Program-made: the position numbers and the translations under genes
Part shown: one piece after another, positions 10,990 to 60,109 of the stretch
Layout of the letters: every line of letters begins with the position of its first letter
Position numbering within the stretch: the first letter of the stretch is position 1
Notes under the pieces: model-generated
Seen by the model: only the letters and a program-made list of their open reading frames with translations
The model's database searches: none
What the model was told of the DNA's origin: nothing
Assembly (NCBI RefSeq): GCF_018977255.1
Contig: NW_024704742.1
Span: 102,984,001 to 103,048,000 of the forward strand
Direction: 5' to 3'
Length of the DNA: 64,000 nt
Source: Callorhinchus milii
Taxonomy: Eukaryota

Positions 10990-11014
10990 TGCTGATTGTT
11001 ATTTCTTATTTCAG
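10990..11014 (+). promoter_or_regulatory. Candidate splice acceptor for the TICAM2 coding exon
   Basis: Branch-like ctgat at 10992-10996, then tgttatttcttatttcag| with exon start at 11015. Confidence 0.4.
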
Positions 11015-11067
11015 GGTTTATTTTTGTTTAGGAATAAAAGGTTATATATCAAATTGGTGGATAAATA

Positions 11068-11294
11068 AAGTCAAACCTGTTCAAGCAACCACCTCCATTT
11101 AGCCAACCACGGCCTTCTATTAACAACAAGCCTTGAACAGTCCAGCCAGCACAGTCCACATACCTATCCTTGCTCAGATCCACTGCTCCACATTCCCTGG
11201 TGGATCAAATTCAAATCCTTACTCAGAGGCCACCCTTATTTAAAAGCTACTTTGTCCCAGTTCCCTGAGTGGTTGTGGAAGACAGGTTTGACTG
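11068..11294. mobile_element. Tc1/mariner-pogo(Tigger)-like MITE immediately upstream of the TICAM2 ATG
   Basis: Terminal inverted repeats TA|aagtcaaacctgt ... acaggtttgactg|TA with TA flanks; internal aaccac/gtggtt subterminal motifs. Confidence 0.6.
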
Positions 11295-11323
11295 TATATT
11301 GTAAATGTTTTTAATTTCCTACA

Positions 11324-11968
11324 ATGGGGGGCTGGACATCAAAACCTGAGGCCGCCGCGCTCCATGATGTGGACCCGCTCTGCATAGCGGAGACAGATGG
11401 TCATGAATGCCAAACTGAATCAAAATCAAGTAATGGATCTGAACAGGTGGCTGGAGAAAGCGGGGACAGTAAAGCTAATGGCAGTGATGATGAGGAGCAG
11501 AATACGGATGATGCAGACAATGAAGATACGTTCTATAAGTTTGTGATCCTGCATGCACAGAATGACACAGACGAAGCCCTCAGACTTTTAAACCTACTGG
11601 AGAGTCCAGGCTCAGCCTGGACTATCCTTCTCCTGACAGAAGACTTTTTGAGTGAAGCCTGGTGTAAATTCCAATCATACATCACACTGATGAACTCCTT
11701 GAACAAGCAGCATAAATATAACACTGTGATTCCAGTGAGAATTCTCAATAACCCGCTTCCTCACAAAATGACCCCTTTGGTCATACAAGCCATCAATGCA
11801 CTGGAGGAAGGAAACCCTGCCTTTGATAGGCAGGTGAACCTGACTTTTCAGGATTCTACATACGAGCAACAAAGAACTATATGGCACAGGGAGAGAAAAC
11901 TGAAGCAACAAGGAATATCAGCGTTCAATGGAAATAAGACAAACAAATCAAGGGCTGAGGAAGGCTAA
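11324..11968 (+). CDS. TICAM2: TICAM2/TRAM-like TIR adaptor, 214 aa, with internal in-frame deletion of the BB-loop region
   Basis: MGGWTSK fits the N-myristoylation consensus. Acidic linker, then TIR segments KFVILHA..DTDEALR..NLL, GSAWTILLLTE.FL, LMNS.N.QHKYN.VIP.R.LNNPLP and INALEE matching recalled human TRAM. Lies between TMED7 and FEM1C as in human. Confidence 0.92.
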   Translation: MGGWTSKPEAAALHDVDPLCIAETDGHECQTESKSSNGSEQVAGESGDSKANGSDDEEQNTDDADNEDTFYKFVILHAQNDTDEALRLLNLLESPGSAWTILLLTEDFLSEAWCKFQSYITLMNSLNKQHKYNTVIPVRILNNPLPHKMTPLVIQAINALEEGNPAFDRQVNLTFQDSTYEQQRTIWHRERKLKQQGISAFNGNKTNKSRAEEG

Positions 11969-12110
11969 AGTGTAGCTTTATGTAATGATGAAACTGGCAG
12001 TGTAGTATTTCTGCCCTCTTTCTTACTTTGATCTGACAGAGGTTTGTAGAAATGGGTTTGGACAAACCCCAAGCCTGAATAGTACACCAACAATAATTTG
12101 CATTTATAAA

Positions 12111-12116
12111 AATAAA
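12111..12116 (+). terminator. Candidate TICAM2 polyadenylation signal
   Basis: AATAAA ~140 nt after the TAA stop, followed by GT-rich sequence. Confidence 0.5.
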
Positions 12117-12364
12117 TAAGAGATGTGTTTGGTACCCAACCTATTTGACTGTTGTCCATGTGCATGCAGAGGGTGCTTGCAGACAGACCAGATGTGGGAT
12201 CCTTGAATGTTTTTAACTTCTTACCCAGGGCAAATTTAATCTCTCCAGCAAAATCAGCACAGATCAGGATTTGAATTAGTGAATGCCTAGTTCATAAGCT
12301 GCAGAAATATCCACTACACCATCAGGCTGCCCTATCTCACGCTGTTTTCCTGGGCACTCTGAAA

Positions 12365-14035
12365 TACAACAAGAACAACAAAATTTGTATACCGCCTTTC
12401 ACGTCTTGAGGATGTCCCAAGTTCACTGGGCAATCTGTTTCAGACCTGAGCTGGGAGTCGGGATCGAGCAGGGGGGAAAGGAGGTTGATCAAAGGCACGG
12501 TCAAAGAGCAGGGTCTTGAGACGGCTCTTGAAGGAGGCAAGGGAGGGGGCGAAGCGGAGGGACTTTGGGACGGAATTCCAGAGGGTGGGGACAAAATGAC
12601 TGAAGGCACATCCGTCAACGGTGGGGCAGGTGAGGCAGGGCGTGAAGCAGGCTGGCGCCCACTAAGTGAAGGGACCTGGAGTCGAGGGTGAACGCAGAGA
12701 TAGAGTTGGGTGTCATCAGCATACTTGTAGAAGTTGACCCCATGTCTGCAGATTATGTCACTAAGAGGGAGCATATAGATATTGAAGAGGAGGCGACCAA
12801 GGACAGAGCCCTGAGGAATGCTGCATGAGATGGTATGGGGAATAGCAGAGAAACAGTTTGTGGAGATGGTGTGAGAGGTATGATCTTAACCATTCCAGAA
12901 TGGAACCATGAAGGTTGAGGTGAGAGGAGAGATGGTGGATGCGTGGTCAATGGTATCGAAGGCAGCAGAGTGGTCAAGGTGGATGAGGAGGCAGAGGGAG
13001 CCCTGGTCGCAGATGGACAAAATATCATTTGTCACTATGACCACTTTGTGGGCGACACGGAAACCCGATTGGAGGGGTTTGTGAGGGGAATGGCAAGAGA
13101 GGAATGAGGGAAGCTTGGAAGCAACGACTCATTCCAGGACCTTGGCAAGGAAAGGGAGGTTGGAGATGGGGCGATAATTTGAGAGCAGGAATGGGTCTGG
13201 GGAGAGTTGTTTAAGGATACAAGTGTTGATGGACATTTTTAATGGGGTGGGAATGGTGCCAGTGGACAGGGAGAGGTTTATGATGTCTGAGTAGAGGGCA
13301 AAGGAGGTGGAGTTGGGAGGTAAGGATGGGGTTGTGGGAGCAGGTGGTCAGTTTCATATGGTTTATAGTGGTGGTGAAAGAGGAGGGGGAAACAGGTTCG
13401 AAGGTGTGAAGGGAGGGATGGGTGGGGCTGGGGTATTAGGAGGAGATGGGGAGGGGGTAGTAGTTGGAAGGGCAGAGGCAGCTGAGCGGATGCCCTCAAT
13501 TTTGATTTCAAGGATGTCCAGCATCTTCTTGCAGTTGGCATTGGAGGAGGAGATGGGAAAGGGTTGAGATGGTGGGCGGAGGAGCCAATTGGTAATGGAG
13601 AAGATGAGCCTGGGGTTGTCCTTAGCTTCCGAGATTATCTTGGAGTAGAATGAGAATTTAGTGGAGGCGAGGGTGGAGTCGTAAATTTTGATCAGGTTCA
13701 GTGATGGACTGTTAAATTAGATTTGGGCCAGGTGCATTCAACGGCACACACCTGTGCCTTGAGGGAGCGAAGATGGCTGATGTACCAGGGTGACTTCCAT
13801 GAGTAGGAGGAGGTTTGGGAAGTGAGGGGAGCAAGGGCATCGAGTGTTGTGGAGAAGAGTGACCGAGGAGAATAGGTCATTGTGGGAGGAAGCCCAGAGG
13901 GGGAGGAGTTCAGATGACTCCATGGCAGCAGAGAGGGAGTCATGGGGGAGATTTTTCCAGGGTTGATATGAGATGGAGGTGGATTGGGTGGCAGTGGGGA
14001 GAGGGATTGAGGAGTTAAGGGGATGAAGTAATGGG
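12365..14035 (-). mobile_element. Internally deleted LINE-2 (RT region + 3' tail)
   Basis: Minus-strand [26 protein letters not shown] (RT YADD motif); tail caacaagaacaacaaaatttgtat at ~12365. Confidence 0.9.
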
Positions 14036-23662: not shown

Positions 23663-24142
23663 AGTATCTGCCTACACTTGGCTGGACATGTTATTGTATG
23701 CCTTGAATGCATTTTGCTACATTGTTGGGACATTGGGTGTAAGTTTTCTTGCGTCACCATGTACTGGGAAAATTAATTGCAAATGACGTACATAACCCGG
23801 CACCGCCTTAGGTGTCATACTCTCAAGTGTGGTGACCAACACCTACTTCACTTGGCCTAGGATACTTTGAAGGGCCCCAGAGGTTTCCTTATCAGAATTA
23901 CTAACTTCCCTTGAACGTGACAGAAAGTTACCAAAGATATAAAGGCAAAAGTTTATTTAAAAAACAATCGAGTATAATGATAATCTTTGTATTTGAAACG
24001 TATGTCAAAAAATATCTCATGGTGCTTCAAATGTAATTTCTGTTGTGTGTAGTGACTGTACTTGTAGCTAAAAAACTACTGTAATTTTAAAATTCAAAGT
24101 AAAAACAAACTGAACAAAAAGTGAACAGATATTGGGTTTGCA

Positions 24143-24330
24143 GTAATAATAATCCTTGCATTTGATATAGCGCTTTTCACGTCTTCTCGACGTCTCAAAG
24201 CGCTTCACAGAATAGACTGTAAAGTGAATTGACCGTATATTTGTGGGCGAAAGTAAATCCGGTGAAGCGCTTTGAGACGTCTCCACAACGTGATAGGGCG
24301 CAATATCCAATGCAAAGATTACTATTGTTA
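24143..24330. mobile_element. Two SINE/L2-tail fragments in opposite orientation
   Basis: Minus tail 24143-24250; plus tail gtgaagcgctttgagacgtctcc from ~24262. Confidence 0.75.
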
Positions 24331-24384
24331 CTACACACTGCACAGACATTACAGACATCTGTTTAATAATAACAGTGGTTAACA

Positions 24385-24760
24385 CTAGGCGGCGCTGCTC
24401 TATTGCGGGGCGGCTTTGCGCACGGCTGGCGATGAATGAGCAGAACCAGACCCGAACTCTAGTCCCGCCCCCCCTAACCCTTTGCCGCCTCCTATTGGCT
24501 CCGCGGGAGTGGGGGGGGGGGTTCGCATGGAAACCCGATCCCTGGGCGACGTCACAAAGAACGTCATTGCGTAACTCCCGGCCATTGGCTGCTCGGCTGT
24601 CAATCAAGCGGGAGCGGAAGGGACGCGGGGGGAGAGAGAGGAAAAAAAGTTCCACTTCCGTTGGTAAAGTTCCGCTTCGGCTGCGCCTCGCGATGGCGGT
24701 GAAATCCTCTCCGGTGTCGGGGGCCGTGTGCGGCCGCGCGGGAGTCGTGACAATCGTGTG
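24385..24760 (+). promoter_or_regulatory. FEM1C CpG-island core promoter
   Basis: CpG-dense. GC boxes (ggggcgg, cccgccc), inverted CCAAT (attgg ~24494, ~24584), CRE-like gacgtca (~24548), ETS cggaag/acttccg, YY1-like gatggcgg (24692). Confidence 0.8.
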
Positions 24761-24893
24761 TCCCTTTTATTTATTTAATAATATACAATAAGAGGGCGAG
24801 AGCTCCTGACGCTTTCGGTCAATTCATCGGCGTTTCGTTGCTGTGGTGCTGGTGGGTCTCACCTCCTCCTCCTCCTCCTCCTCCTCCCAAAAA

Positions 24894-25803
24894 GAGAGAC
24901 AGAATATAAAAGAAACTGTCAGGAGGAAGAGAGAGAAAGAGGAAGAGAGACCGGAGAGAGGGAGAGACCGGAGAGGGAGACCGGAGAGAGGGAGAGAGAG
25001 ACCGGAGAGAGGGAGAGAGAGACCGGAGAGAGGGGGAGAGAGACCGGAGAGAGGGAGAGACCGGAGAGGGAGACCGGAGAGAGGGAGAGAGAGACCGGAG
25101 AGAGGGAGAGAGAGACCGGAGAGAGGGGGAGAGAGACCGGAGAGAGGGGGAGAGAGACCGGAGAGAGGGAGAGAGAGACCGGAGACCGGAGAGAGGGAGA
25201 GGGAGACCGGAGAGAGGGAGAGGGAGACCGGAGAGAGGGAGAGAGAGAGACAGCCGGAGAGAGGGAGAGAGAGAGACCGGAGAGAGAGAGAGAGAGACCG
25301 GAGAGAGGGAGAGAGAGAGAGAAGGAAAGAAAGATGAACTCGGAGTAACCACAGGCGAAGCGAAGTGCGGACAAGGAGAGAGAGAGAGAGAGAGCGGCAA
25401 CTCCGGTCTGTGGTAAAACAGGGAGGAAAAGTTCAGCCAATACAAAGTCAACGCTCAAGAGAGGAGAACCAGAGGGACAGAGAGAGAGGGAGAGGAGGGA
25501 GAGGCGGGGAGGGGGACAGGAGGGAGGGAGAGAGAGAGAGGTAAAGAGAGGGGGAGCGAGTGGGGGAGAGAGAGGTAGAGCGAGAGTGAGGTAGAGAGGG
25601 GGAGGAGGGAGAGAGGGGGAGGAGGGAGTGGGGGAGAGAGAGGTAGAGAGAAGGGGAGGAGGGAGAGAGGGGGAGAGGTAGAGAGAGAGAGAGAGGTAGA
25701 GAGAGAGGGGGAGGAGGGGGAGAGGTAGAGAGAGAGAGAGAGGTAGAGAGAGAGGGGGAGGAGGGGGAGAGGTAGAGAGAGAGGGGGAGGAGGGGGAGAG
25801 AAG
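24894..25803 (+). repeat. Polypurine GA-rich tandem array upstream of the FEM1C ATG
   Basis: Units of gagagaccggagagagg(g) over ~24945-25310, then gagaggtagagagag/gggggagg units over ~25480-25800. Preceded by (cct)n at ~24862-24888. Confidence 0.9.
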
Positions 25804-25928
25804 CGGTGGTGGAAGCCCGAGCGGCGCGAGGTTCCGATAGAGAAGGCGGCGGCGGAGTCTGCGGCGGAGCGGGAGCGGGTCAGGAAGGCGGGAGAGGGAG
25901 GGAGAGGCCGCAGTCACAGCCCAGGAGG

Positions 25929-26472
25929 ATGGACATCAAGACGGCGGTGTTCAACGCGGCCCGAGACGGCAAAGTGCGGCTGCTGCAGAAGCTGCTGTCC
26001 ACCAAGACCCCGGAGGAGGTGTCGGCGCTGGCGGCCGAGAAGTCGAACGGGGCCACGGCGCTGCTGATGGCCGCCCGGTACGGCCACCTGGAGGTGGTGG
26101 TGTACCTGCTGGAGCGGTGCGGCGCGGCCGTGGAGCTGGGCGGCTCGGTCAACTTCGACGGGGAGACGATCGAGGGCGCCCCGCCGCTGTGGGCGGCCTC
26201 GGCGGCGGGACACCTGGCGGTGGTCAGGTCGCTGCTGGAGCGCGGGGCCTCGGTCAACAACACGACCCTCACCAACTCCACCCCGCTCAGGGCCGCCTGC
26301 TTCGACGGCCACTTGGACATCGTCAAGTACCTGATCGAGCACCGGGCCGACATGGAGGTGGCCAACAGGCACGGCCACACCTGCCTCATGATCTCCTGCT
26401 ACAAGGGCCACAGGGACATCGCCAAGTACCTGCTGGAGAAAGGAGCCGATGTCAACAGGAAAAGTGTCAAAG
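25929..26472 (+). CDS. FEM1C: FEM1C first coding exon (ankyrin repeats; CRL2 C-degron substrate receptor)
   Basis: aggATGG start; MDIKTAVFNAARDGK...GADVNRKSVK; phase-1 donor AAAG|gtaact; 544 nt. Confidence 0.97.
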
Positions 26473-29400
26473 GTAACTCCTTGGAAGATGGTGTCTGGGT
26501 GTCTGTGTGTGTCTGTGTGTGTATATATTGTCATACAAAATGTACGGTCCCCGATTGATTCACTTTACAGTGTACTCTGTGAAGCCCTCTGAGACGTCTC
26601 GGCGACGCGCTCAGGCGCTGTACCAAACGCGAGGGTTATTCTTGCTCTGGCGCAGGGTTTGGAGGGCAAAGGAATGGCCTTGTGGTGACAATGTGAAGGG
26701 GCTCCTTTCGCCGTTTGACTGACGTGAATGGGAGATATTTCTGTATTCTCTCGCGACGCCGTGAATCGGGTCAGTTTTCAGGATGATAGTTGGGTTCACG
26801 AATTCGCATTGGGGTCTGTCCCAACGACGCCTTGCGTTCGCGCAGCGGCCCATCACGAAGAATAGCTTCTCGGGGCGCTGCACAGTGTGGGATCGGATGC
26901 CCGAGCGAGGGAGGTGACTATAGTGGATGGTGAAGAGGTGGGTGTTCAGGTGGGAGGTGAAGATGGGGGAGGTGGGGCGATAGAGCCAAGAAGTTCCAGA
27001 GTCCGGGGGTGCAGTTGCTGAAAGTGGCCATCCAAAGAGGTTGAATTACCAGTAAAACAGTGCTGCATCCAATTAAATAACAAGGTTAATGTGACCTACC
27101 TAGAGCTTAGATTATCCATGAAATATATTTTTAAAATGTACTTATTAAAAATGGTAAAATTAATAAAAAAGGACAAAAGTCCTGTTTTTTAAATCACTGA
27201 GATACTAAAGCTGTTTAAAATATGAGTGAAACTTTTTTTTTACAGAAAGGCCTCTTGCTTTTGTTCTTGAACTGGTTGTTTTCAGTTGAAATGGGCTTGT
27301 AAAGTTGTCTTAACTTTTGTTTCGACGGAGTGAATCCGTTCTGGATTTAAAAATATATATTTGCAGCGAAGCACAATACAGTATTAGATCCATAAATCTG
27401 CCGCACGTGGAGTATGAGCACTCCCCTCCCCCATAAATGAACTTTCTCTAATAAAACTCTGATCAACTTTCTATTGATAAAAGCTGTGATGAATTTATGT
27501 AAATACTGTAGTCCCATTAGTGCAGTTTCCTCTTCAACTTCCACTTCTATCTATCTCTTACACCCCCCATGCACGCACACCCTTACTCACGCACGCGCTC
27601 TGATAAGTTGCAGTAAACTGCTGGCAGTAGTTTGTGAACCTGCACTTGTCAGATATCAAATGACCAATCAACGTCTATCCTGGGGGTGGGGTTGGGAGGA
27701 GATAAGCAGGTTCACCTGACAGCTGAGCTGGTTACAAATTGATCTGCTTGGCAACAGAATGTCAGACTTGACTGATATCTCTGATAGTCGAGGTGCTCCA
27801 CTTCCTGAGCGAGGTGGGTCCTAATTCCGAAGTACTCTAAACTTGGAGTAATGTAATGGAAGGCCAGCTGGACGACTTCACTGATGGGACTTGGAGGAGC
27901 AAACTGGTCACTGATTCTTTCCACTCGGCTCCTATTAACTGCGCAAGCGAAAGCCCTCATGTCGAAAACAAGATGGACAAGCAGGAGGAAACTTGCCAGA
28001 CAATATTCTCAATGACGAACTATGCACTTAGCTTGTTGAACTTAAGCAACACCCCAACATACACTGGGGTGTGGGGGTGTCTCCCAAGCCTTGGCTATTG
28101 TAAACCTCTGCCTAATACTCTGAATTAGGCAGACAGCGTGTGTTCCTCCAGGGAGAGAGTTGACGTTCCATTCTAGATGTGGAAATCGCCATGTGTAGGT
28201 GGCATGCCTATATGGAACTTGTTTGTATATATGATAATGGTTTCCGTACGTGTCAGACACCAGGCTGACCAAAAACAAGTGAGCATGGAGTTGCATCAAT
28301 ATGAGAAACATGTCCATCATCAATATAAATGCAGACTCTTTTATTCTGGAGAGTTTTTGTACACGCAAAAATCTTCACATTCCAGGTGACCAGGCCAACT
28401 TGTGTAACTTTTATACCAGCATGAAGATAAAATAAAATTTAAGGCAATCATTGAGTATAGATAGATGCAGTACATCACTCATTGAGTTGACATTAGGTGG
28501 ACTTACAGATATGCTTGTTATAGAAAATACCATAGGACAGGGGTCTCCAACTGGTTGTCACAGCTAGTTGTCCTCTCGCACATGCTCAATTAAAAACAAG
28601 ACAGAGAGTGATATCTACTGCAGTTTAAACAATAACCTTTATATTTTTTTCGAGATGTGACTGAAGTACCAGGACTATATAACTACACGGTTGTATTGCT
28701 CCTTAATCTTGTCTTTTTGACTATGCAATGGAGCATGAGTGACCTAGCTGCAACCGACTGGTTGAAGACCCCTGAAGTAGTAGATCAGATAGGCATAGAA
28801 ACAGAACATTTAGGTTTTAATAGTGGGTGGTCTTATCACCCTTTCGAGGTTGATTGGCTGAGTATTTTTAAAAGCAAATCTGCCTGGAGTTTGGGCCAGG
28901 TAAGTGAGATTACCCTATGGAGACAACATTGGCTTTGTTTTAATACAAAATGGTGGTGGCCAACTAGCCTTTCTGCCTTACCAATTAGTCTTTGAATTAT
29001 TGACATATATTCTCAACCCAACAAGCCAAAGGCCTAGCAGAGTGGTCTGTCCAGCGCTTTGGGACATCCTCCTAACTGAAAGGCACTATACAAATGTAAT
29101 TTGTTGTTGTTGTCCAGCCTGGGAAAGTCTTGTGATATTGATCTATGCTTTGTATTCTTAAAATATGCAAATACAATGTTGTAGAGAAAAGTGTTTAAAC
29201 GTGTTAATGATACCTGTATTCTCATTGAGCTGATGTTGTACCTTGATCTTTCAAGGGCTTTATAAAATGAAAATGGGAAAACAGGAGGAGAATTTATTTT
29301 CTGTTTCCACTCAACTAAGCTATTTTTAAGATTAACAGTGAAGAAAATGTGCTATTTATACTATGTATAAGCAAATGCTGACATAAGAATGGTTCGTTTC

Positions 29401-31570: not shown

Positions 31571-32819
31571 GTTACTGGGTGTGCTGGAGAAGGAGATCCC
31601 CTTCCTTGACAATGTTGCTTTATGGTCATGTCTGTGAAGTTGACCCTGCTGTGTATTAGACTCTCACGTCACTACATGGACTACCAGGGAGTGGGCTGCC
31701 AACTTAACCTTAAACAAAGAAAGCAAATCTCACAACCCAACAATCCAGTGCTGTGACCAGACACCCAGCACACATTTAACTTTTCCCACTGCACTGTGTT
31801 GTCTAGCTGGATGCTCAACTACTGTTCCTGCTGTGTAATTTAGGAATACTCATCCGTTTTATCACTTGCTTTTCACCTTTATTATGTCCTATCTTATAAC
31901 ATGGAACCTGAGGACTGTCTTAGATCAATGCAGCTGTACAGTCAGGATCAAGAACATGCCCAGGTAGTCCAGGCTGACTGACTGCTTCTTCCAGCACAAA
32001 ACAAGTGCCTGTCTTATACTGGGGTTCCTGGCCCTGGTGCTTACATAGTGACATAATCCAGCACACATCACAGAGGAAATCATAGGCTTTAACTGAGCTC
32101 TGTCCCCTCGATGTTTCAGTGTTGGGAACTCCAGTGCACATTGGCCTCCTAAGAAACCGAATCTTAAGTACAAACTAGTTGGACAAGCAGCAGGAAAGCC
32201 TGTTAGACAGCAATATCAAGGGCAAGCTATGTGGTTTTAGCTGTTGGACTCTCATCAGTACCTGAACCCACACTCTGGGGTCCCCTACCCGTGCCAACCT
32301 GTGCCTACTACTTTCTGGAATTAGTTAAGCAGGATGCATCCCTCCAGGAAGAGTGTATGTGTACCATTCCAACAATCTATCTGGGATTTCCATGTGTAGG
32401 TGGGATGCATCAAATTCTCCCTTGGTTTGGATACTCGTAAGCATGGTGATGGGTTTCCTCATGTTCCAGACACCCAGCTGACCCCCCCCAAAAAANTACA
32501 GACTATAGGAGGGTCACAAGGGCTCTGATCATTGTTTGTTTGAATTTCACAAAAGGCTTTTTACTCAAAACCACTTTTGTTTTTTATCAGTTTAGATGAG
32601 ATGGCAGTCTATTTTCTGCTGAATGCTTGGCTTGCCACTGCTGTTCGATGAGAAACATACAACTTTTATTTATAATTTGTTCTTATTTTTAGGTGATGTT
32701 TGAAATATTCAAAACTACAGCTGTGAATAACATTGCTGCATTTTGTCAAAATGTTTAGACTTGTTATCGTTTTTCATGCCTTGTGACTTCCTCCTACTCT
32801 TTCAGTATTTACTTTCACT

Positions 32820-42420: not shown

Positions 42421-43702
42421 TTATTACATTTATAAAGCACCTTTCATGTCGGGAGGACGTCCCAAGGTGCTGAACAGTCAGGAGTGTGGGCGGCAGGTGT
42501 GGGATGAGGGAGGGCAGAGAGGTAGGAGGGCGGCTGAAGGCACGGTCAAAAAGGAGGGTCTTGATTCGTGCCTTGAAGGAGGCAAGAGAGGGAGCAGGGC
42601 AAAGTGATTGTGGGATGGAGTTCGAAAGAGTGGGGGCAGAAAGGCTGAAAGCCCGGGCCACTCATGGTAGGGTGTGTCGGGCGGGAGACCCGCAGCAGGT
42701 CGGAGCCGGCTGAATGGAGGGAATGGACAGGTTGATAGGTCAGCAGGTCAGAGGTATAGAAGGGGGCAAGGCTATGGAGGGTCTTGAAAGCGAGGACAAG
42801 GATCTTGAATTCTAACCTTTGAGGGTTGGAGAGCCAGTGGAGCCGGGCGAGGGTGGGGGTGATGCGTTCACGGAGCCTGGTTCGGGAGAGGACACGATCT
42901 GCAGCTTGTGGAGGGAAAAGTTGGGGAGATCGACATGGGGGGAGTTTCTATAGTCAAGCCTTGAGGTGACGAATGTATGTATGAGGGTTTCGGCGACCTG
43001 AGGGGTGAGGCAGTGGCAGAGTTGGGCAATGTTGCAGAGGTGCGGGAAGGCAGAGTGGGTCATGGCACGGATAGGGGGGGAGAAAGGACAGTTGAAGGTC
43101 GAACAAGATGCTCAGGTTCCTAACTGGCTTGGTGAGGTGGAATTTGCATCCGTGGATGCTGATGCTACAAGTGCCTGAGGTGCGGAGACGCTGGCGCGAG
43201 CCAATCAAGAGGGCTTCAGTCTTGCTGACACTCAGCTGTGGAAAGTTAGCTCTCATCCAGGACTTGATGTCTGACAGAGTCTGTCAGGACAGCAGTTGTC
43301 CTAGAATCGAGGGTGGAGGCAGAGAGATAGAGTTGGGTGTCATCCGCGTACATATGGAAGTTGACCCCATGTCTGTGGATGATGTCACCAAGGGGGAGCA
43401 TGAACAGGTTGAAGAGGAGGGGAGTGAGGACAGAGCCCTGAGGAACACCACACGAGACAGTGCAGGGGCTGGAAGAGAAACAGTTGGCGGAGACAAATTG
43501 GAGACAGTGGGAGAGATAAGACCTGAACCATTGAAGGACAGAACCTGGAAGATTGAGGTGAGAGGAGAGGCGGTGGAGGAGGATGGAGTGGTCCACTGTA
43601 TCGAAGGCAGCAGAGAGGTCGAGGAGAACGAGAAGGCAGAGGCGGCACTTGTCACAGATGGACAAAATGTTGTTTGTCACCTTGCCCAGAGCAGTTTCCA
43701 TG
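42421..43702 (-). mobile_element. LINE-2 RT region + 3' end, tail-to-tail with the CR1
   Basis: LLDLSAAFDTVDH...GVPQGSVL.PLLF...YADDTQLY. Confidence 0.95.
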
Positions 43703-45309
43703 CGTTCCAGTTTTGGTCAACTTGTATTTTCCTATTTGGCGAGATGTGATTTACCTGGGATGGCAAGTGGCAATACTACAGGGTGGCAAACTTGGTTAAA
43801 TCCCAAGGCACTTGACCTATTTGTAACCAATGTTGTCGGACTTTCTGCCCTCTTACTGGGAATAGTAATGGAATAAGGAGGCACAATTTAACATTGTTAA
43901 TGTATTTATCCACTTCCAGGTTTTGCAAAATTGCATTTTTTTTACGTTTGCGTGAGACTGTGCCTTTCTCTTCCGCCTGAAAGAAAACGCAAAGTAAAAG
44001 CAACAATTAATCAGAATTCTTTTTAATCTCACTTTTGGGATTTGAACATGTGCTGATTTTGTTAACTGGCAATATTGGGCCGGACAAGAAGTCTTAAACT
44101 AGGGCATCAACTACCTAGTTAGCTGTGGTGAAGAGCGGAGCTGGGAGAGAGAGAGGAAACATCATGTTTTCGAGGTGGATTTGAGACCCAGGTTTCAAAG
44201 GCAACGGATATCATGAAACATGCTGCTCCTTCACACTGCTCCTCCTGAGCTATTTTAATCTAATGTTTAAAGCACTTGGCTGGTACCTGGGGGAGATTTT
44301 TGCTAAGGAGGAATAAAGGAAGGATGGAATGAAAAAAGGTCATTCAGCCCATGAAGCTTAATCCTTCCAGAGTTCATCTGTGCATCTTTTCTTTCCTATC
44401 CAACCCAGGTAGCTGCCTGAGGAAAAGTCTTGAATAATCTAATTGGTCTGTTGATGTAACCATTTTCTATATACGGTGCTGGGTAACGAATCTGGAAGCT
44501 TCCGTTTTCTAGTTCCTGTAATAAATGTCAGTACCTCAGTACTAGTCATATTTGTAATCTTGCTGTGGATGTGGGAATGTTTAAAGAGTACTGTGTGCAT
44601 GCCATCAGTCTTGTCAAATACATTTAGTAAAATATTATGATATTGCTCTTGAATTCAGAAACTGAGATCTAATTTGATGGAAACCAAGCCTTGCTGTGTC
44701 TGCAGTTTCAGATGTTTGTTCACCTATTTCCTGGATTTTCAATAAGGGCCAATTAAAACCTTTCTTGGCATTCTTACAAACTCCTAAATAAATTCATGGC
44801 AAGGCAATGTCATACAATCATAGCTGTAGCTGCAAAACAGTTTTCAACATGTTTCTGACTAACCTGCAGCAGGGGGACCTGAAGCTTGCATGCAAGCAGT
44901 CTGTATCTTTTTACCATTACAATAAAGGCTCTGCATTGCAAGAGCACTTAAATAATAATCTTAGCATTTGACATGTTGTGATTCATTCAAAAGTCTCAAA
45001 GCATTTCACAGATTTTATTTAAGCTGAAGTTTAACGACTGTATTAGTAGGGAAAGTTTTGGTGTTTTGTTACTCTTGGCACATGGCTTCTAATTTGATGG
45101 AGAGTTAGAATTCTTGTTGAAGACATTCTAGGAATCGCAAATGAGTTGCTAATTATAATTGCATTTGTGACGATAACAGGCAGTAAAATGAGCAAAATAC
45201 ATAGACTTACAGCCCAGAACTGACCAACTAGTCTGTGCCAGTGTATGTACGTAAATGTGAATTTGAACTCTATTGCACAGATCACATTGTGACTGTTTTC
45301 CTTTCCGTC

Positions 45310-46290: not shown

Positions 46291-46713
46291 GAGCGACACC
46301 GACCCATCTGGCAGCACATACTTGTTTTGATTGGAAATAAATCCTTTAAAGGTGTCGGTTTGCTCAGTTGGTAGTATTCTCGGGTTAGAAAATTGAGGAC
46401 TTGAGTTCACAATGTAGGACAAGAGGGGGGATTTCCAAAATAGAATTGTATGTCCAAACTTTGAGATTCACAGTCAGATTGAACCTGACTGGGAATCTCC
46501 ATCTCCCGACCCACACCAACCCCCCACACCACCCAGTTTCCACACAAGTGTTCCAATTTTTAAGATTATATTGAATATTTATTGTTCCATCCTTCCTGAC
46601 TTTTTTTTAATCTTCTCGCCAATATGTTTTGACACATTTAAAATCCTTTAAATGTACTGCTAATTTGAAACATTGGTGCCATTGGCTAATGATTCTTTCA
46701 TTTTACTTTATAG

Positions 46714-48023
46714 GAAACACAGCTTTGCACGACTGTGCTGAGTCCGGGAGCTTGGAGATCATGAAGATGCTGCTTAAATACGGAGCGAGGATGGAGAAAG
46801 ATGGGTACGGAATGACCCCATTGCTCTCAGCCAGTGTGACCGGTCACACCAACATTGTGGACTTTCTAACCCAGCATCCACAAACCAGCAAGGTCGAGAG
46901 AATCAATGCCCTGGAGCTCCTGGGAGCCACCTTTGTTGACAAGAAGAGAGATTTGCTGGGAGCTATGAAGTACTGGAAGAGAGCTATGGACATGCGATAC
47001 AGCGATATTGCTAGAGTCCTTGGGAAACCTGAGCCCAAGGAGTTAGTGATGGCTTATGATTATACCAAAGAAGTAACGACTGTGGAGGAACTGGAAGCCT
47101 TGATTGCTGATCCAGATGAGATGAGGATGCAGGCTTTATTGATCAGAGAGAGAATACTGGGCCCCTCTCACCCAGATACCTCTTATTACATCAGGTACAG
47201 AGGTGCAGTCTATGCCGATTCTGGCAACTTTGAAAGGTGCATCAATCTGTGGAAGTATGCGTTGGATATGCAGCAGAGCAACCTGGACCCATTGAGCCCC
47301 ATGACCGCCAGTAGCTTGCTGTCTTTCGCTGAACTTTTTTCTTTTATGCTACAAGACCGAACGAAAGGTGTCTTGGGAACGTCCGTGTCTTTCTCTGACT
47401 TGATGGGGATACTGAGCAAAAGCGTCTTTGAGATAGACCGGGCCATTAAACAGATACAGTCTCCCCCAGATCCTACGCAGCTAAGCAAAGCCCTGTCCAT
47501 CATCTTGCATTTAATTTGCTTGCTGGAGAAAGTGAAATGCAGCTCTGAGCAGGAGCAGTTCAAGAGGCAAACCATCTACAGGTTTCTGAAGCTAAACTCC
47601 AGAGGGAAAGCTGGGTTTTCTCCACTTCACCTCGCAGTCGATAAAGACACCACCTCTGTCGGTCGCTATCCAGTTTGTAAATTCCCATCTCTGCAAGTCA
47701 CAGCAATGTTGTTGGAGTGCGGAGCAGACTTCAACTCAAGAGACTTGGACAGCAACAGTCCTTTGCACATTGCTGCACGCAACAACCACCCTGAGATCAT
47801 GAATCTTCTGATTAAGGCAGGAGCACACTTTGACACCACAAACTCCCAAAAGCAGACAGCCTGCGACTTACTCGATGAGAAGGAAATGGGGAAAAACTTA
47901 ATTCAACCTATCAACCATACAACTTTACAGTGTCTTGCTGCCCGTGCCATAGTCAAACACCAATTGGTTTACAGAGGACAGATCCCAGAAAAATTGGAGG
48001 CATTCATTTTGCTGCACAGATGA
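46714..48023 (+). CDS. FEM1C: FEM1C last coding exon (ANK, TPR, ANK, C-terminal VHL/BC box)
   Basis: Acceptor ttttactttatag|GAAAC restores G-N-T-A-L-H-D-C; ends ...TLQCLAARAIV...FILLHR*. 544+1310 nt = 617 codons + stop, the same length as recalled human FEM1C. Confidence 0.97.
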
Positions 48024-53199: not shown

Positions 53200-56100
53200 A
53201 ACAACGAAATTACATTTGTTTAACGCCTTTCACGTTGGGAGGACGTCCCAAGGCGCTGGACAGACAGTTAAGGACCCAAGCTGGGAGTCGGGGGAGAGTG
53301 GAGGGCAGGGGGGAAAGCAGAAAGATCGAAAGCACGGTCGAAGAGGAGGGTCTTGAAGGTGGCGAGGAAGGGGGCAAGACGTAGAGTATGCGGGATAGAG
53401 TTCCAGAGGTTGGGGGCAGAGTGGCGGAAGGCCTGCCCACCAATAGTGGGGTGAGCAAGGCGGGGACCTGAAGCAGGCTGAAGCCCACTGAATGGAGGGA
53501 GCGAACAGGGTTGTAGGCTTTGAAGGTAAGGACCAGCATCTTGAATTGTATCCTTTGTATGATGGGAAGCCAGTGGAGTTGGGCAAGGATGGGGGTGATA
53601 GGGTCGCGGAGCTTAGTGCAGGAGAAGACATGGCTGCAGAGTTCTGGAAGGATCTGCAGCCTGTGGAGGGAGGAGTTGGGGAGACCGACAAGCAAGGAGT
53701 TTGCATAGTCAAGCCTCGAATGTAATAAAGGCGTGTATGAGGGTTTCGGCAGCCTGTGGTGTAAGTGTCGGAGCCAGGCAACGTTGAGGTGGGGGAAGGC
53801 AGAGCGGGCCATGGCGCAGATGTGGGGTAGAAAGAATAGTTGAGGGTCCAACAAGACCCCATGATTTCGGACTGGCTTAGTAAGGTGGAGTGTGCAACCA
53901 TGGATGTGGATGCTGTCACCGCCTGAGGTATGGAGGCTCTGACGGGAGCCAATCAGGAGAGCCTCGGTCTTGTTGACGTTCAACTGAAAAAAGTTAGCTT
54001 TCATCCCGGACTTGATGTCTCACAGACATTCTGTCAGGACAGCAGTGGTCGTGGAGTCAGAGAGGTACAGTTGGGTCGTCATCCACATACATGTGGAAGT
54101 TGACCCCATGTCTATGGATGATAATAATAATAATTTTCCTTGCATTTGATATAGCGCTTTTCACATCTTCTAGATGTCTTGTGGAGTCCTGTAGCTCAGT
54201 GGTTAGAGCATTCGCTTTGCGACTGAGAGACCTGAGTTCAATTCCAGGCAGAGGGCGAAACCTTGGGCAAGTTTCCTTACTCCACACAGAGCCTAATAAT
54301 AATCCTCCAAAAAAAAACCAAAACAATAATAAAAATTGGTCATTTTCAATCTACGACTGTTTGTGGGACATTGCTGTGCGCAATTGGCTGCCGCTTTCGC
54401 CCACAAATATACTGTCAATTCACTTTACAGTGTGTTCTGTGAAGCGCTTTGGGACGTCCTCCCGACATGAAAAGCGCTATATCAAATGCAAGGATTATTA
54501 TTATTAAAGCACTTCACAGAATACTGTAAAGTGAATCGACTGTATATTTGTGCGCAAAATATGGCTGTCAATTGCACACAGCAGTGTCCCACAAACAGTC
54601 ATGGATTTATTATTGATGTTACCAAGAGGGAGCATATAGATGTTGTAGAGGAGGAGACCAAGGACAGAGCCCTGAGGAATGCCGCACGAGACTGTCCGGG
54701 GGCTAGAGGAGAAGCTGTTTGAGGAGATGAAGTGCAGGCGGTGTAAGGGGTATGATCTGAACCAGTCAAGGACAGCGCCGTGGAAATTGAGGTGAGATGA
54801 GAGGCGGTGGATGAGGATAAAGTGATCAGTGTTAAAAGCAGCAGAGGTCAAGGAGGATGAGGAGGCAAAGTGAGCCCTGGTTGCAGATGGACAGAATGTC
54901 ATTTGTCTGTCTGCGACCAGGGCTGTTTCTGTGCTGTGGGTGGCATGGAAACCCGATTGGAGGGGTTCGAGAAGGTAGTGGTGGGAGAGGAAGGAGCGAA
55001 GCTGAGAAGCAACAACTTGTTCCAGGACCTTGGAGACGAAGGGGAGGTTGGAGATGGGGCAGTAGTTAGAGAGTAGAGAAGGGTCCAGGGAGGGTTTTTA
55101 AAGGATTGGAGTGATGACGGCCATTTTTAAAGGGGTGGGAACAGCACCAGAGGACAGGGAGAGGTTAACGATGTCAGTGAGTAGAAGGGCAAGGAGGTGG
55201 CGCTGAGAGGTAAGGAGAGCGGCAGGGATCTGGTCAAGGGAGCAGATGGTCAGTTGCATACGGGTTATGAGAGAGGAGGGGGAGACGGGTTCAAAGGTGT
55301 GGACGGAGGGATGGGTAGGGGCCGGAGTGAGAGGAGGAGATGGGGAGGGGGTAGAAGATGCAGAGGCAGCTGAACTGATTCCCTCGACTTTGGATTCGAG
55401 GAAGTCCAGCATTGCCTCACAGTTGGCATTTGAGGTGAGGATGGGTGAGGTGTGAGAGGGTGGGCGGAGGAGCTGGTTCGTGATGGAGAAGAGGAGCCTA
55501 GGATTGACTTAGCCTTCAAGATTGTCTTGGAGTAGAACATCGACTTAGCAGAGGCGAGGGCAGAGTGGTAGGATTTGACATGATCCAGCCAAATCTGCCA
55601 ATGGACAGCTAGGTTTGATTTAAGCCAGGCTCAGCGGAACTGGCCTGGGCTTTAAGGGAGTGGAGGTGGCTGATCTATCAAGGTGACTTGCATTAGTAGG
55701 AGATGGTTCGGGAAGAGAGGGGAGCGAGGGAATCAAAAGTGGAGGAGAGGGAGCTGTAGAGAAAAGTGACCGAGGAGGGTAGGTCAGTGAGGGAGGACGC
55801 CCAGAGGGGAAGGAGTTCAGATGACTCCAAGGCAGCCAAGAGGGATGGGAGGTGGGGAGATTTTTTTCTCAGGGGAGGTATGAGATGGAGATGGGTTGGG
55901 TGGTGGTGGGGAGAGGGATTGACGAGTTAAGGGAGATGAAGTGATGATCTGAGATTGCTTTGTCAATGATGGTGAGGTCCAAGATGGTGAGGCCCCGAGT
56001 GATCACCAGGTCGAGGGAGTGACCATGGACATGGGTGGCAATGTGGAGGGAGTGATTGAGGGAGGAGGTAAGGGAGGAAAATTCAACAGAGGTAGAGCAA

Positions 56101-56470
56101 GAGGGGGTGAAATGAAGGTTGAAATCGCCAAGGATAAGGAAGCGTTCAGAGCAAAGGGAGAGGGAAGATAGGAGGGTGGAGATGTTGGGGATGATGGTGG
56201 GGGAGGACTTGGGGGGGTGGGGGCGCTGTAGATGAGGAGAATTTTGAGGGAAAGGTTGGAGGTGTGATAAAGGGTAAGGTGCTCAAAGGAGAGAAAAGTT
56301 CCAATGGAGTAAGTGGATAGGCCGAGCGGGGACCGGAAGATGAGAGCCACACCACCACGGCGGCATTTAGATTGTGGGGTGTGATGGAAGGTGTAGCCGG
56401 GTTGTGTGGCCTCAATCAGGGAGAAGGTGTCGACTGGAGTGATCCGGGTTTCAGTGAGGGCGAGAATGTA
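53200..56470 (-). mobile_element. Longest LINE-2 in the window: APE endonuclease through RT to 3' tail, frameshifted and interrupted by SINEs
   Basis: ILALTETRITP...PGYTFHHTP...GGVALIF (APE N-terminus) at ~56330-56470; GIPQGSVLG and YVDD motifs; tail at ~53200. Confidence 0.93.
54181..54505 (+). mobile_element. Full-length young tRNA-SINE nested in a minus-strand SINE fragment (54121-54180 + 54506-54613)
   Basis: gtggagtcctgtagctcagtggttagagc...caaggattattattatt. The two flanks join into one minus-strand SINE tail. Confidence 0.9.
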
Positions 56471-56477
56471 AAGTATT

Positions 56478-56760
56478 AGAGACTGTGTGTTTGTGGGTGA
56501 ACACGGCAGCCAATTTGCTTGCAGCAATGTCCTGAGAAATGAAGGACCATTTATGTGGTGATTGTAACTTTCCTTTTGAATAGTGTTGTGGGTTCTTTAA
56601 CGTCCACCTGAACAGGCAGATGGGACCTTAGTATAATATGTCATCTGAAAGACTGCAGCTCTGACAATGTGAAGCTTCCCCATGACTGCATTGGTTTTCG
56701 CCTAGACTGAGCTCTTAGTCCTGACATGAGCCATGAACCTAAACCTTCTGATCCAGAGAC
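56478..56760 (-). mobile_element. Old Deu-domain SINE
   Basis: gtgggtgaacacggcagccaatttg...tctttaacgtccacctgaacaggcagatggg. Confidence 0.7.
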
Positions 56761-57712
56761 TGGTGTCAGGTTATATATAGCCTGCGGAAGAGTTGGATTT
56801 ATTGGGACATCTTTTGCAATTTACATTTTATCATCTTAAAACTTTTTGTGAAGATACAGTGGTTAGAATTTGAGGAGACTGCAGATAATCATATCCATCT
56901 ACACCTCAGAATAGAATGCTCTGAAAATAGCATTGATCACCCAAAAAGTTTTCTTGGCAACATACAGGCAATATCTATCTATGTTGCCATAAGTACTCTT
57001 GCTCTACAATCCGTTTTTCTATGTTTTTGCAGTGCTTTTTAACCTTTTTTAATTAAAAAAAATTGTAGATCATAATTTTAACAAAAGAGTCGTGCTGGAA
57101 AAAGCTGTTCAATTGTTAAATGCTGCGCTTACATGACGGGAGGCGAGATCTGTGTAAGGAATTCTCTCGAGTTATGTTCAGTGACTGATTGATTGAGAAT
57201 TTGGCTGCAGATCCCTGGATGTTAAATTACCATTGCATATAACTGACCTGGTTCTGTACCAATCTCGAATCAAACAAATCGGATGAAGCAAAAGAAAGGC
57301 CTCCTTGACGAGGAGAAATGTTACATTTTCTCATAAAATTAACAATTCCAAATAGGATGCATGATAATACCAGATATTTGCAGAATAAAAAAGCAAAGTA
57401 CTTGGACTTAAATATAAAATTAAAATGAATGTAACTTCAAAAGATTAATTGAAAGAAGTTGTGCCTTTAAATATGCAATTAAAATCCTGTGCCATTCACA
57501 TGAAAGCTCTTGTAATCCAAAAATAAATTCATGAAGATTTTCTGACTCACATTCTGTGGTCTGTGTGTCATCGAGGTGCTGGTTTTATAAAGCCAGACTG
57601 AAGTGAACAATGGTCTGCAAAGGAAGTTTGGAAATGATCGTGACTCGGAGCAAAGTGCTCAATGCTGCTGCACCCACTCAACCCGACACGCACAAATGGA
57701 AGGCTGCAAATT

Positions 57713-57841
57713 ATATTCAGTACTTGGGTCTCTAATTTAGACAGGAGGTTAAATCCCAAAGTTATAGTCCTGGCAGTATAATTACTGATATTTATTCTGT
57801 TGATGCATATAGAACCTTTGTTTGCATTAAACTGAGTCCTG
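57713..57841 (+). repeat. ~130-bp direct repeat, copy 2
   Basis: See 52443-52581. Confidence 0.9.
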
Positions 57842-57949
57842 TTTTATACAGCAACTGTTTTAAAGAGTTTTTTTAAAAAGACTCTTAGCAAATTATATTC
57901 TACTTGTGAAAAGCAACAGTTTTCATTTAGAAATGTTATGTGTGAGCTA

Positions 57950-59250
57950 CAACAGCAATATTTCATGTCGGAAGGACGTCCCAAGGCGCTGGACAGACAG
58001 AGTTTCGGACCCGAGCTGAGGGTCGGGATCGGGGTGGGTGAAGGCCAGGGGGGAAGCAGGGAGAACGAAACCACGGTCAAAGAGGAGGGTCCTGAGGTCG
58101 GTCTTGAAGGAGGCAAGGGAGGGTGCGAGGCAGAGGGACTGCGGGATGGAGTTCCAGAGAGTGGGTGCAGAATGGCGGAAGGCCCGCCTGCTGTTAGTGG
58201 GGCGGTCGAGGCAGGGGATGTGAAACAGGCCGGAGCCCACTGAGCGGTGGGATGGAGCAGGATGGTCGGGGCTTAGGAGGTCACAGAGGTAGTGGGGAAC
58301 CAAGCCTATGGAGGGCTTTGAAGGTGAGAACCAGGATCTTGAACTATACCCTCTGTGTGATGGGAAGTCAGTGGAGTCGGGCGAGGATGGGGATGATAGG
58401 GTCACGGAGCCTGGTGCGGGAGAATACACAGGCTGCAGAGTTCTGGATGAGCTGCAGCCTATGGCGGGAAGAGTTGGGGAGGCCGATAAGAAAGGAGTTT
58501 GCATGCTCAAGCTTTGATGTAATGAAAGCGTGTATGAGTGTTTCGGTGGCCTGTGGAATGATACAGTGGTGGAACCGGGCAATGTTGTGAGTTGGGGGAA
58601 GGCAGAGAGGATCATGGCACAGATGTGGGATAGAAAGAATAGTTGAGGGTCAAACAAGACCCCAAGGTTCTGGACTGGCTCAGTGAGGTGGAGTGTGCAA
58701 CCATGGATGGTGATGCTGTCAGCGCCTGAGGTGTGGAGGCGCTGACGGGAGCCAATCAGGAGAGCCTCGGTCTTGTTGACGTTCAACTGAAGAAAGTTAG
58801 CTCTCATCCAGGACTTGATGTCTGACAGACATTCTGTCAGGACAGCAGTGGTCCTGGAGTCAAGGGTGGAGGCAGAGAGGTAGAGCTGGGTGTCATCCGC
58901 ATACATGTGGAAGTTGACCCTATGTCAGGAATCATGTCACCAAGAAGACGCATATAGATATTGAAGAGGAGGGGACCAAGGACAGGACCCTGAGGAACTC
59001 CGCATGAGAGGGTGCGGGGGCGAGAGGAGAAACCGTTTGTGGAGATGAAGTGGAGGCGGTGTGAGAGGTACGATCTGAACCAGTCAAGGGCAGAGCCGTG
59101 AAGTTTGAGGTGAGAAGAGAGGCAATGGATGAGAATAGAGTGGTCGACGGTGTCGAAGGCAGCAGAGAGGACTAGGATGCAGAGGGAACCCTGGTCACAG
59201 ATGGACAGAATGTCATTTGTCACTTTGACCAGGGCTGTTTCTGTGCTGTT
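57950..59250 (-). mobile_element. LINE-2 RT region + 3' end
   Basis: [49 protein letters not shown]. Confidence 0.95.
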
Positions 59251-60109
59251 TCTGTGCTATGAGCTATCATATTCTCCCTTGCTAGAAAATTGGAATTTGC
59301 TTTATTTCAAGTTAAAGTGGACTAAAATTTAGTTTTTCTTTTAAGACCTCAATCCAGTTCAAAAGAATCCACTTTTCAGATACTCTGACTGTATATTTCA
59401 ATTTACCAGCTTTATTCTAATCAAATTTTCCTTGCCTCCATCACTCCTTCTTGTCCCTTCTTTGCCACCCTGACATGAAAGGGGTTATGCAAATGCAATT
59501 TTGTATAGTATTCAGATCACACCTGAAGACTTTCCTCTTCATCTGTCCCTAGGGTCACCTCCCCTTTCTCCCTGGCTTGGCATCAAAGTACGCCAATGTT
59601 AAACATTCTGCATGAAGCATGCTGTATAAATGCAAATTATTGGTGGTAATTTTCTCTGGGATGTTTTCCAGCCATAATTTTACTCGGCACAACTGAATAT
59701 TGTCTTATGCAATGATGTCTCTACCCCACAAAACAGCTAGGGAGTTTAGTTGGCAAACAGTTCCACATATATTTGATACCATTTTAGGGCCATAGCTTTG
59801 CTGTTGCTTTCTGGGATGGGAGAACAAATATTTATGCCTCCATGTATTTAGAGTCCGCTGATGGCTGTTTCAGAGCTCTGTGGGAATGAGCTTGACAACA
59901 ACTTGGTTCATTTTTCTCGAATATAACCGAGTCCAATAATGTTTCAAAGGGAATCACATGAATAATTAAATGATACAGGGCACAAGATTTAGTGAACTCT
60001 AGTAGAGCTCACTGATTTGCTGAGTCTCTCAAGAGGTAACTGAATACCAAATAAAGGATGCCTGTGAAAACTGGATGAAGAAATGATAATGTGCTTAAGT
60101 AAGGTCATA

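Follow-up and report, generated by a model that had tools for sequence, protein, structure and literature searches.

The adaptor gene TICAM2 (TRAM) of the elephant shark, Callorhinchus milii, lacks the centre of its TIR domain in the reference DNA, and we assign a probability of roughly two in three to the reading that this DNA carries one segregating allele of the gene, created by a template-switch deletion, probably without function, and tolerated with the TLR4 arm dead. The intact gene exists in the species, since a cDNA-derived protein record, a prediction from an older assembly and a contig of a public sequencing run all hold it. The deletion is a second allele; the assembly has it, and so do two of the three informative runs. 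The window, as the term is used here, is the whole stretch of DNA that was analysed (64,000 nt, positions 102,984,001-103,048,000 of a chromosome of 139,202,109 bases).

The preferred reading can be broken down into steps. One complex mutation would have removed 86-88 nt of TIR coding sequence and put in 5-7 nt, a net loss of 81 nt that stays in frame, and the inserted letters were probably copied in reverse complement from about 10 nt downstream by polymerase template switching or fold-back repair. The product, devoid of the end of alphaA, of betaB, the BB loop and alphaB, would be unable to form the head-to-tail BB-EE interface of TRAM filaments; it probably folds poorly, making the allele a loss-of-function one. 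The allele may segregate since the canonical receptor arm (TLR4, MD-2, CD14) was already defunct in the species.

The TICAM2 frame of the window and its missing part

The features of the window that define the gene and its surroundings are the following.

11324..11968, + strand: TICAM2 (TRAM) coding frame, deletion allele, 214 aa and stop; 212/241 identities to NP_001279313.1 with one 27-aa gap
11324..11344, + strand: N-terminal MGGWTSK, which by sequence fits the MGxxxS/T pattern
12111..12116, + strand: AATAAA polyadenylation signal, about 145 nt past the stop codon
25776..26555, + strand: first ankyrin-repeat exon, probably of FEM1C (Ank_2, E 2.5e-32)
46611..48020, + strand: large FEM1C exon (8pql_H, 'Protein fem-1 homolog C', E 2.5e-251, chain 182-617)

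The initial annotation, which was made from the letters only, had taken the frame for TRAM, and the structural database, the homologues and the species' own protein all bear this out. In a phmmer search the best PDB match of the window ORF was the TIR domain of human TICAM2 (2m1w_A, E 7e-45; 9dlg_B, E 9e-44), whereas TICAM1 was far weaker (E 6e-08). Together with the names of the homologues and the 212 identities found by BLASTP, this places the gene as an orthologue of TICAM2 rather than of TICAM1 or another TIR adaptor. FEM1C lies beside TICAM2 in the window, the neighbourhood that has been reported for this gene as for tetrapod TICAM2 (PMC9440496). The polyadenylation signal that the initial annotation had placed downstream is the AATAAA listed above. 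The gene and its intact protein are already known, and C. milii TRAM has been described as the earliest-branching TRAM with a conventional TIR_2 domain (PMC9440496, PMC6043800, PMC11788365). The allele of the window resembles the known C. milii TRAM in being the same gene at the same locus next to FEM1C with 212 identical residues, and differs from it in having S-P for N94-N122 and in falling under the Pfam TIR_2 cut-off.

Some further observations concern the surroundings of the gene. A high-copy interspersed repeat occupies 11041-11122 and 11205-11297, just upstream of the start codon, and ends 27 nt before the ATG; its summed contig depth in the sequencing runs described below is 500-1500, as compared with 6-9 for the ORF, and many contigs diverge from the window at 11065/11069, 11103, 11212 and 11296/11297. 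The same repeat is present on the contig that carries the intact allele. Decayed fragments of LINE-type retroelements (RVT_1, Exo_endo_phos) lie at 12337-12885, 43249-43716 and 54507-59256, all on the minus strand. At 24000-27000, in the surroundings of the first FEM1C exon, each of the six frames has ORFs of 140-340 codons, probably a reflection of a stop-poor, G+C-rich region or a CpG island. The window is complete except for a single N at 32496.

The missing part was delimited in two ways. The phmmer match to 9dlg_B is in two parts, query residues 69-94 corresponding to chain residues 2-27 and query residues 95-195 to chain residues 55-155, so that 27 residues of the chain are skipped without any gap in the query. 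BLASTP against NP_001279313.1 gave a single gap of 27 residues: N94-N122 of the intact protein, 29 residues, are represented in the window ORF by S-P, and residues 96-214, the C-terminal part of the TIR domain, are identical to the intact allele. The open frame of 214 codons without betaB, BB loop and alphaB is thus as it was first described, with the end of alphaA lost as well. The net loss of 27 residues (81 nt) also stands, but the replacement of 30 residues by 3, given originally against the human sequence, becomes one of 29 by 2 when the protein of the same species is used.

The lost piece is not elsewhere. In the 64-kb window tblastn did not find it (the best chance match had E 0.93), and the missing residues 95-122 had no match in the whole assembly. 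Searched with NP_001279313.1, the assembly yielded residues 1-94 and 123-241 at the TICAM2 locus, and otherwise only TRIF on C21. A second TICAM2 copy was rejected on these grounds, there being no TICAM2-like locus in the assembly apart from TRIF. An intron in place of the lost stretch was likewise rejected: the letters are absent from the genome, and the intact form is present as DNA in one of the sequencing runs.

Aligned with other TICAM2 proteins, the lost stretch turned out to be a well-kept part of the domain. A search of 5.8 billion proteins returned 181 candidates, 118 of which matched at E <= 1e-5, and all 29 lost residues are kept in 118 of these 118 homologues. After the C. milii protein itself the next matches were 47-57% identical, the named ones being tetrapod TICAM2; about 30 of the 118 were unnamed, and among the named ones there was no other cartilaginous fish. 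Mean column conservation was 0.86 in the lost stretch and 0.82 and 0.85 in the TIR flanks. Six columns of the stretch are invariant (P100, G101, P108, G110, L117 and N122 of NP_001279313.1); P108, G110, L117 and N122 all lie inside the deleted residues, and the window ORF lacks the invariant proline of the BB loop together with the filament-interface residues of alphaB. It may be mentioned that the intact shark TRAM itself departs from the majority of the 118 matches at residues 105, 106, 109, 111 and 118, in the BB loop and alphaB. Its residues there are N and D (A and E in at least 90% of the matches), A (C in about 60%, this being the position of human C117), N (R in about 70%) and S (D in about 80%).

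The domain scores fit this picture. Pfam TIR_2 scored 18.6 bits on the window ORF against a cut-off of 28, covering only profile positions 51-106, whereas NP_001279313.1 reached 36.8 bits across positions 1-106; a complete TIR_2 domain above the gathering score is therefore found in the intact allele and not in the window ORF. AlphaFold2 models built from alignments of 64-65 sequences had a mean pLDDT of 49.9 and a pTM of 0.27 for the 214-aa form, and 53.7 and 0.30 for the 241-aa form. Confidence was low even for the intact protein, and the foldability of neither form was read from the models.

The N-terminus is unaffected by the deletion. MGxxxS/T is an N-myristoylation pattern, and the initial annotation was right that the motif is kept, MGGWTSK fitting the pattern and G2 being nearly invariant in the alignment. 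A conserved N-myristoylation motif has been reported in TRAM orthologues (PMC9440496).

What the deletion would do to the protein can be judged by comparison with human TRAM, in which a protomer inserts its BB loop into the EE pocket of the following one, the loop thus forming the intrastrand interface of the filament; the mutations P116A, C117H, L122A and L125A abolish filaments, and several of them abolish signalling (PMC11745336). Like the human BB-loop mutants (P116A/H, C117H), the shark deletion allele has no BB surface. The human mutants are, however, point changes that leave the TIR domain complete and folded (crystal and NMR structures 9DKI and 2M1W), whereas the shark allele is also without the edge strand and the helix that covers the sheet. 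From the sequence we infer a poorly folding, non-signalling product, and the segregating allele is probably non-functional. The open frame is weak evidence of function because a net loss of 81 nt is in frame by arithmetic.

The strongest competitor is a natural decoy, an idea found in the initial annotation as well, with the allele kept by selection. A myristoylated product folded well enough to keep its EE surface (betaE/alphaE) would dock on the BB loop of a wild-type TRAM or TRIF protomer, offer no BB loop to the next one, and in this way cap the filament and damp signalling. The open frame, the retained MGxxxS motif and the unchanged C-terminal part of the TIR domain would all suit such a role, as would the head-to-tail arrangement of the TRAM filament, BB onto EE; moreover, the allele may not be rare, given that the assembly and two of the three informative runs have it. 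The BB-loop cysteine mutant of human TRAM (C113H in the numbering of the 2003 paper, equal to C117H) blocks LPS-driven reporters when overexpressed (PMC2194210). These dominant-negative data were, however, obtained with point mutants that stay folded, whereas here a core strand and a helix are lost as well as the loop and the TIR_2 score is below the cut-off. An in-frame outcome has a chance of one in three and needs no selection, and none of the 118 homologues shows a form of this kind. We consider the decoy unlikely. Still more doubtful is its fuller version, in which a common BB-less, EE-keeping allele would act as a membrane-anchored filament cap under balancing selection in a species with a dead TLR4.

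Two natural variants of TIR adaptors can be compared with it: TAG, a negative regulator of TRAM, and MyD88s. The allele of the window resembles both in being a natural TIR-adaptor variant that could inhibit its full-length counterpart, but TAG and MyD88s are splice isoforms with an intact TIR domain, whereas the window carries a genomic deletion allele with a truncated one. TAG is known as a TMED7-TICAM2 read-through isoform with a GOLD domain (PMC9440496).

Two forms of TICAM2 in one species

The intact C. milii protein of 241 aa is found under several accessions: NP_001279313.1, AGN91176.1, UniRef V9NEN6 and the older XP_007895568.1. AGN91176.1/NP_001279313.1 is derived from cDNA and XP_007895568.1 is a prediction from an older assembly; all of them hold the missing stretch. 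The GenBank protein record and the NP_ accession are also the one sign of expression, and it concerns the 241-aa form. The exact 214-aa sequence had no match in a collection of 15 billion proteins. NP_001279313.1 is annotated on the same chromosome as the window, and is 27 residues longer than the ORF of that chromosome, therefore the annotation carries a transcript-derived protein and not the translation of its own DNA. The mismatch between genome and annotation is invisible unless the DNA is translated.

To see which forms occur in sequencing data, we compared window positions 11000-12200 with Logan contigs of four public runs, designated X1, X2, X3 and X5. X1-X3 belong to one study and X5 is the only run from another. 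It must be noted that these are contigs and not raw reads, from which minor variants have been dropped, thus they tell of the presence of the forms and not of genotypes or frequencies.

Run X2 holds the intact form. Letters 1-534 of one of its contigs (record 11, 1556 nt, depth 8.85) correspond to window 11070-11603, and letters 621-1212 to window 11609-12200; between these two matches the contig has 86 letters and the window 5, which makes the contig longer by 81. Together with the A at 11603 these 86 letters give 29 codons, which equals the number of residues lost. From the size of the contig gap and from NP_001279313.1 we infer that the 86 letters code for N94-N122. The bin depth of X2 (7.77) is wholly accounted for by this contig.

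Run X1 carries the deletion. Its record 1 (503 nt, depth 5.92) corresponds without a gap to window 11131-11633, with one difference (11602 G>T), and contains the deletion junction, although with 25-30 letters on the right side of the junction it is under the 31-letter rule for calling a bridge. In X3 the contig of the left flank stops at 11601 and that of the right flank sets in at 11609; a further contig, of depth 4, shows T at 11602 and, as far as its end, which lies 31 letters beyond, no other listed difference. The bin depths of X3 exceed the depth of the flank contigs, thus both forms seem to be present in this run. The right-flank contigs of both X1 and X3 begin exactly at 11609, where the two forms rejoin. 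X5 covers 11672-12056 of the single-copy part, so it does not reach the junction.

The haplotypes of the left flank, at positions 11404 and 11545, are T-G in X1, C-G in X2 and C-A in X3, the window being T-G like X1; with three left haplotypes at least two individuals must have been sampled. As single-nucleotide differences from the window these are 11404 T>C in X2 and X3 and 11545 G>A in X3, both inside the coding frame, to which 12004 A>C in X1, X2 and X5 can be added.

The palindrome at the deletion junction

The junction is part of an inverted repeat, made up as follows.

11602..11608, + strand: junction letters, found where the stretch was lost; 86 letters of the full-length form have given way to 11604-11608
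11599..11627, no strand: near-perfect palindrome of 29 nt; the arms 11599-11612 and 11614-11627 pair at 13 of 14 positions, the mismatch being 11602 versus 11624
11614..11627, + strand: native coding sequence, codons S-A-W-T-I, probable template of the inverted copy (from the inverted-repeat search and alignment)

The two arms of 14 nt are separated by one base. Letters 11604-11608 are the reverse complement of 11618-11622, about 10 nt downstream. Native sequence makes up the right arm, with the S-A-W-T-I codons of the conserved betaC, and also the outer three and the inner four bases of the left arm, only the middle of which is new. In a search for inverted repeats with arms of 14, at most one mismatch and a spacer of 0-5, this was the only one in the 64 kb, and there was none in 20 block shuffles. 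At position 11602 the window has G, whereas the X1 and X3 deletion contigs have T; this T pairs with the A at 11624, so that in these contigs all 14 pairs fit and the palindrome is perfect. If the T form is the true allele, the junction reads D-S-P and not E-S-P. As to the G of the window, it could be conjectured that it is the mixed consensus of a heterozygous animal, or the state before a second switch that perfected the palindrome.

Inserted letters that are the reverse complement of adjacent sequence and give rise to an inverted repeat are what identifies a template switch, and the junction is, as judged from its letters, the signature of short-range template switching or fold-back synthesis. 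Such a mechanism of mutation, known from quasi-palindromes, has been described (PMC7954356, PMC8794818, PMC8604942, PMC7202029). The window resembles the quasi-palindrome mutations in that its new letters are the reverse complement of nearby sequence, that an inverted repeat is created or perfected, and that there is microhomology at the switch points; it differs from them in that 86-88 nt of coding sequence were lost along with the switch. From the ancestral form, known at the level of the protein and by the length of the contig stretch (86 letters), the four switch points are placed only approximately.

The structure of the junction also bears on the question whether the deletion was made by the assembler or polisher from an animal that had the full-length gene only. 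The DNA of the chromosome is 81 nt too short for the RefSeq protein annotated on it, at 11602 the window disagrees with the deletion contigs from the runs, and palindromes can trouble assemblers, all of which would be in keeping with an artefact of assembly or consensus. On the other hand, the contigs of X1 and X3, with different flank haplotypes, have the same junction, their ends coincide with the points at which the two forms diverge and converge again (11601/11602 and 11609), and the junction is structured like the product of a known mutational mechanism; the template-switch signature therefore speaks for a real event and not for a mis-assembly. We regard an artefact as very improbable. 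The initial annotation had foreseen that the missing 81 nt might turn up in reads or transcripts and would then point to an assembly error or a rare allele. They did turn up, in the protein records and in X2, but the assembly error did not follow, the deletion junction being carried by contigs of X1 and X3.

That a BB-loop-less TRAM is fixed in the holocephalans, as an early pseudogene or a neofunctionalised adaptor, has in its favour only its occurrence in the reference assembly and the reportedly dead TLR4 of the species, and is refuted by the intact form in the cDNA-derived AGN91176.1/NP_001279313.1, in XP_007895568.1 and in X2, leaving this reading practically no probability.

TRAM next to a TLR4 arm reported as defunct

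The suspicion voiced in the initial annotation that this lineage may lack a working TLR4/MD-2 pathway accords with the literature, where the TLR4 of the elephant shark is described as a pseudogene containing stop codons, or a fragment, and where CD14 and LY96 are reported to be missing (bioRxiv 10.64898/2026.03.23.713620; PMC9533005, citing the 2014 genome paper). In the assembly the TIR profile PF01582 gave 22 matches, 12 of them TLR-like. Nine of the 12 were typed, eight against the PDB and one by its 96% identity to a typed locus:

L004: best PDB match TLR13
L005 and L011: best PDB match TLR15/TLR1 family
L006: best PDB match TLR1
L007: best PDB match TLR2; L008 is 96% identical to L007
L009: best PDB match TLR2/1
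L010: best PDB match TLR15, E 2e-85
L022: best PDB match TLR3

TLR4 was the best match of none of the nine typed loci, the typing covering all of the 12 but L014, L015 and L021. These three are 40-49% alike and have open frames of 1041-1053 aa; they may be TLR7/8/9-like. The TLR2-like L007 (C1, 24.62 Mb, minus strand) and L008 (C1, 24.66 Mb, plus strand) lie in opposite orientation about 37 kb apart, their 96% identity extending over 652 residues.

TRIF is intact in the assembly (L003 on C21), as an open frame of 714 aa with TRIF-NTD and TIR_2. The elephant shark is reported to have kept both TRAM and TRIF, with TLR4 a pseudogene and MD-2 and CD14 absent. NP_001279313.1 keeps 42 of the 42 columns that are invariant among 64 aligned TICAM2 orthologues; together with the intact TRIF, this leads to the conclusion that TRAM has been constrained for most of the history of the lineage. 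Comparison of the sequences argues that TRAM may still matter in this lineage despite the dead TLR4, and speaks against simple decay.

Under the preferred reading, that of a segregating and probably null allele, the dead receptor arm could explain why such an allele is tolerable. Of the decaying TLR4 adaptor proposed in the initial annotation there remains a weaker version: an allele that segregates and is probably null, and not the state of the lineage.

The passages of the literature that were covered held no description of a BB-loop deletion allele of elephant shark TICAM2, of the mismatch with the reference chromosome or of the template-switch signature. For users of this much-used comparative genome the finding means that the reference DNA encodes a TRAM 27 residues short of its RefSeq protein, and translating the reference DNA alone would lead to the wrong inference that chimaeras have a BB-loop-less TRAM. 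For the study of mutation mechanisms it offers a clear case in which a coding deletion comes together with a templated insertion in inverted orientation, and in which a second variant (11602) makes the palindrome perfect. If the doubtful filament-cap reading were true, it would mean that TRAM has a TLR4-independent job worth tuning. As regards the evolution of the TLR4 arm, a segregating allele that probably destroys the TIR domain of TRAM would be a natural test of whether TRAM is still needed.
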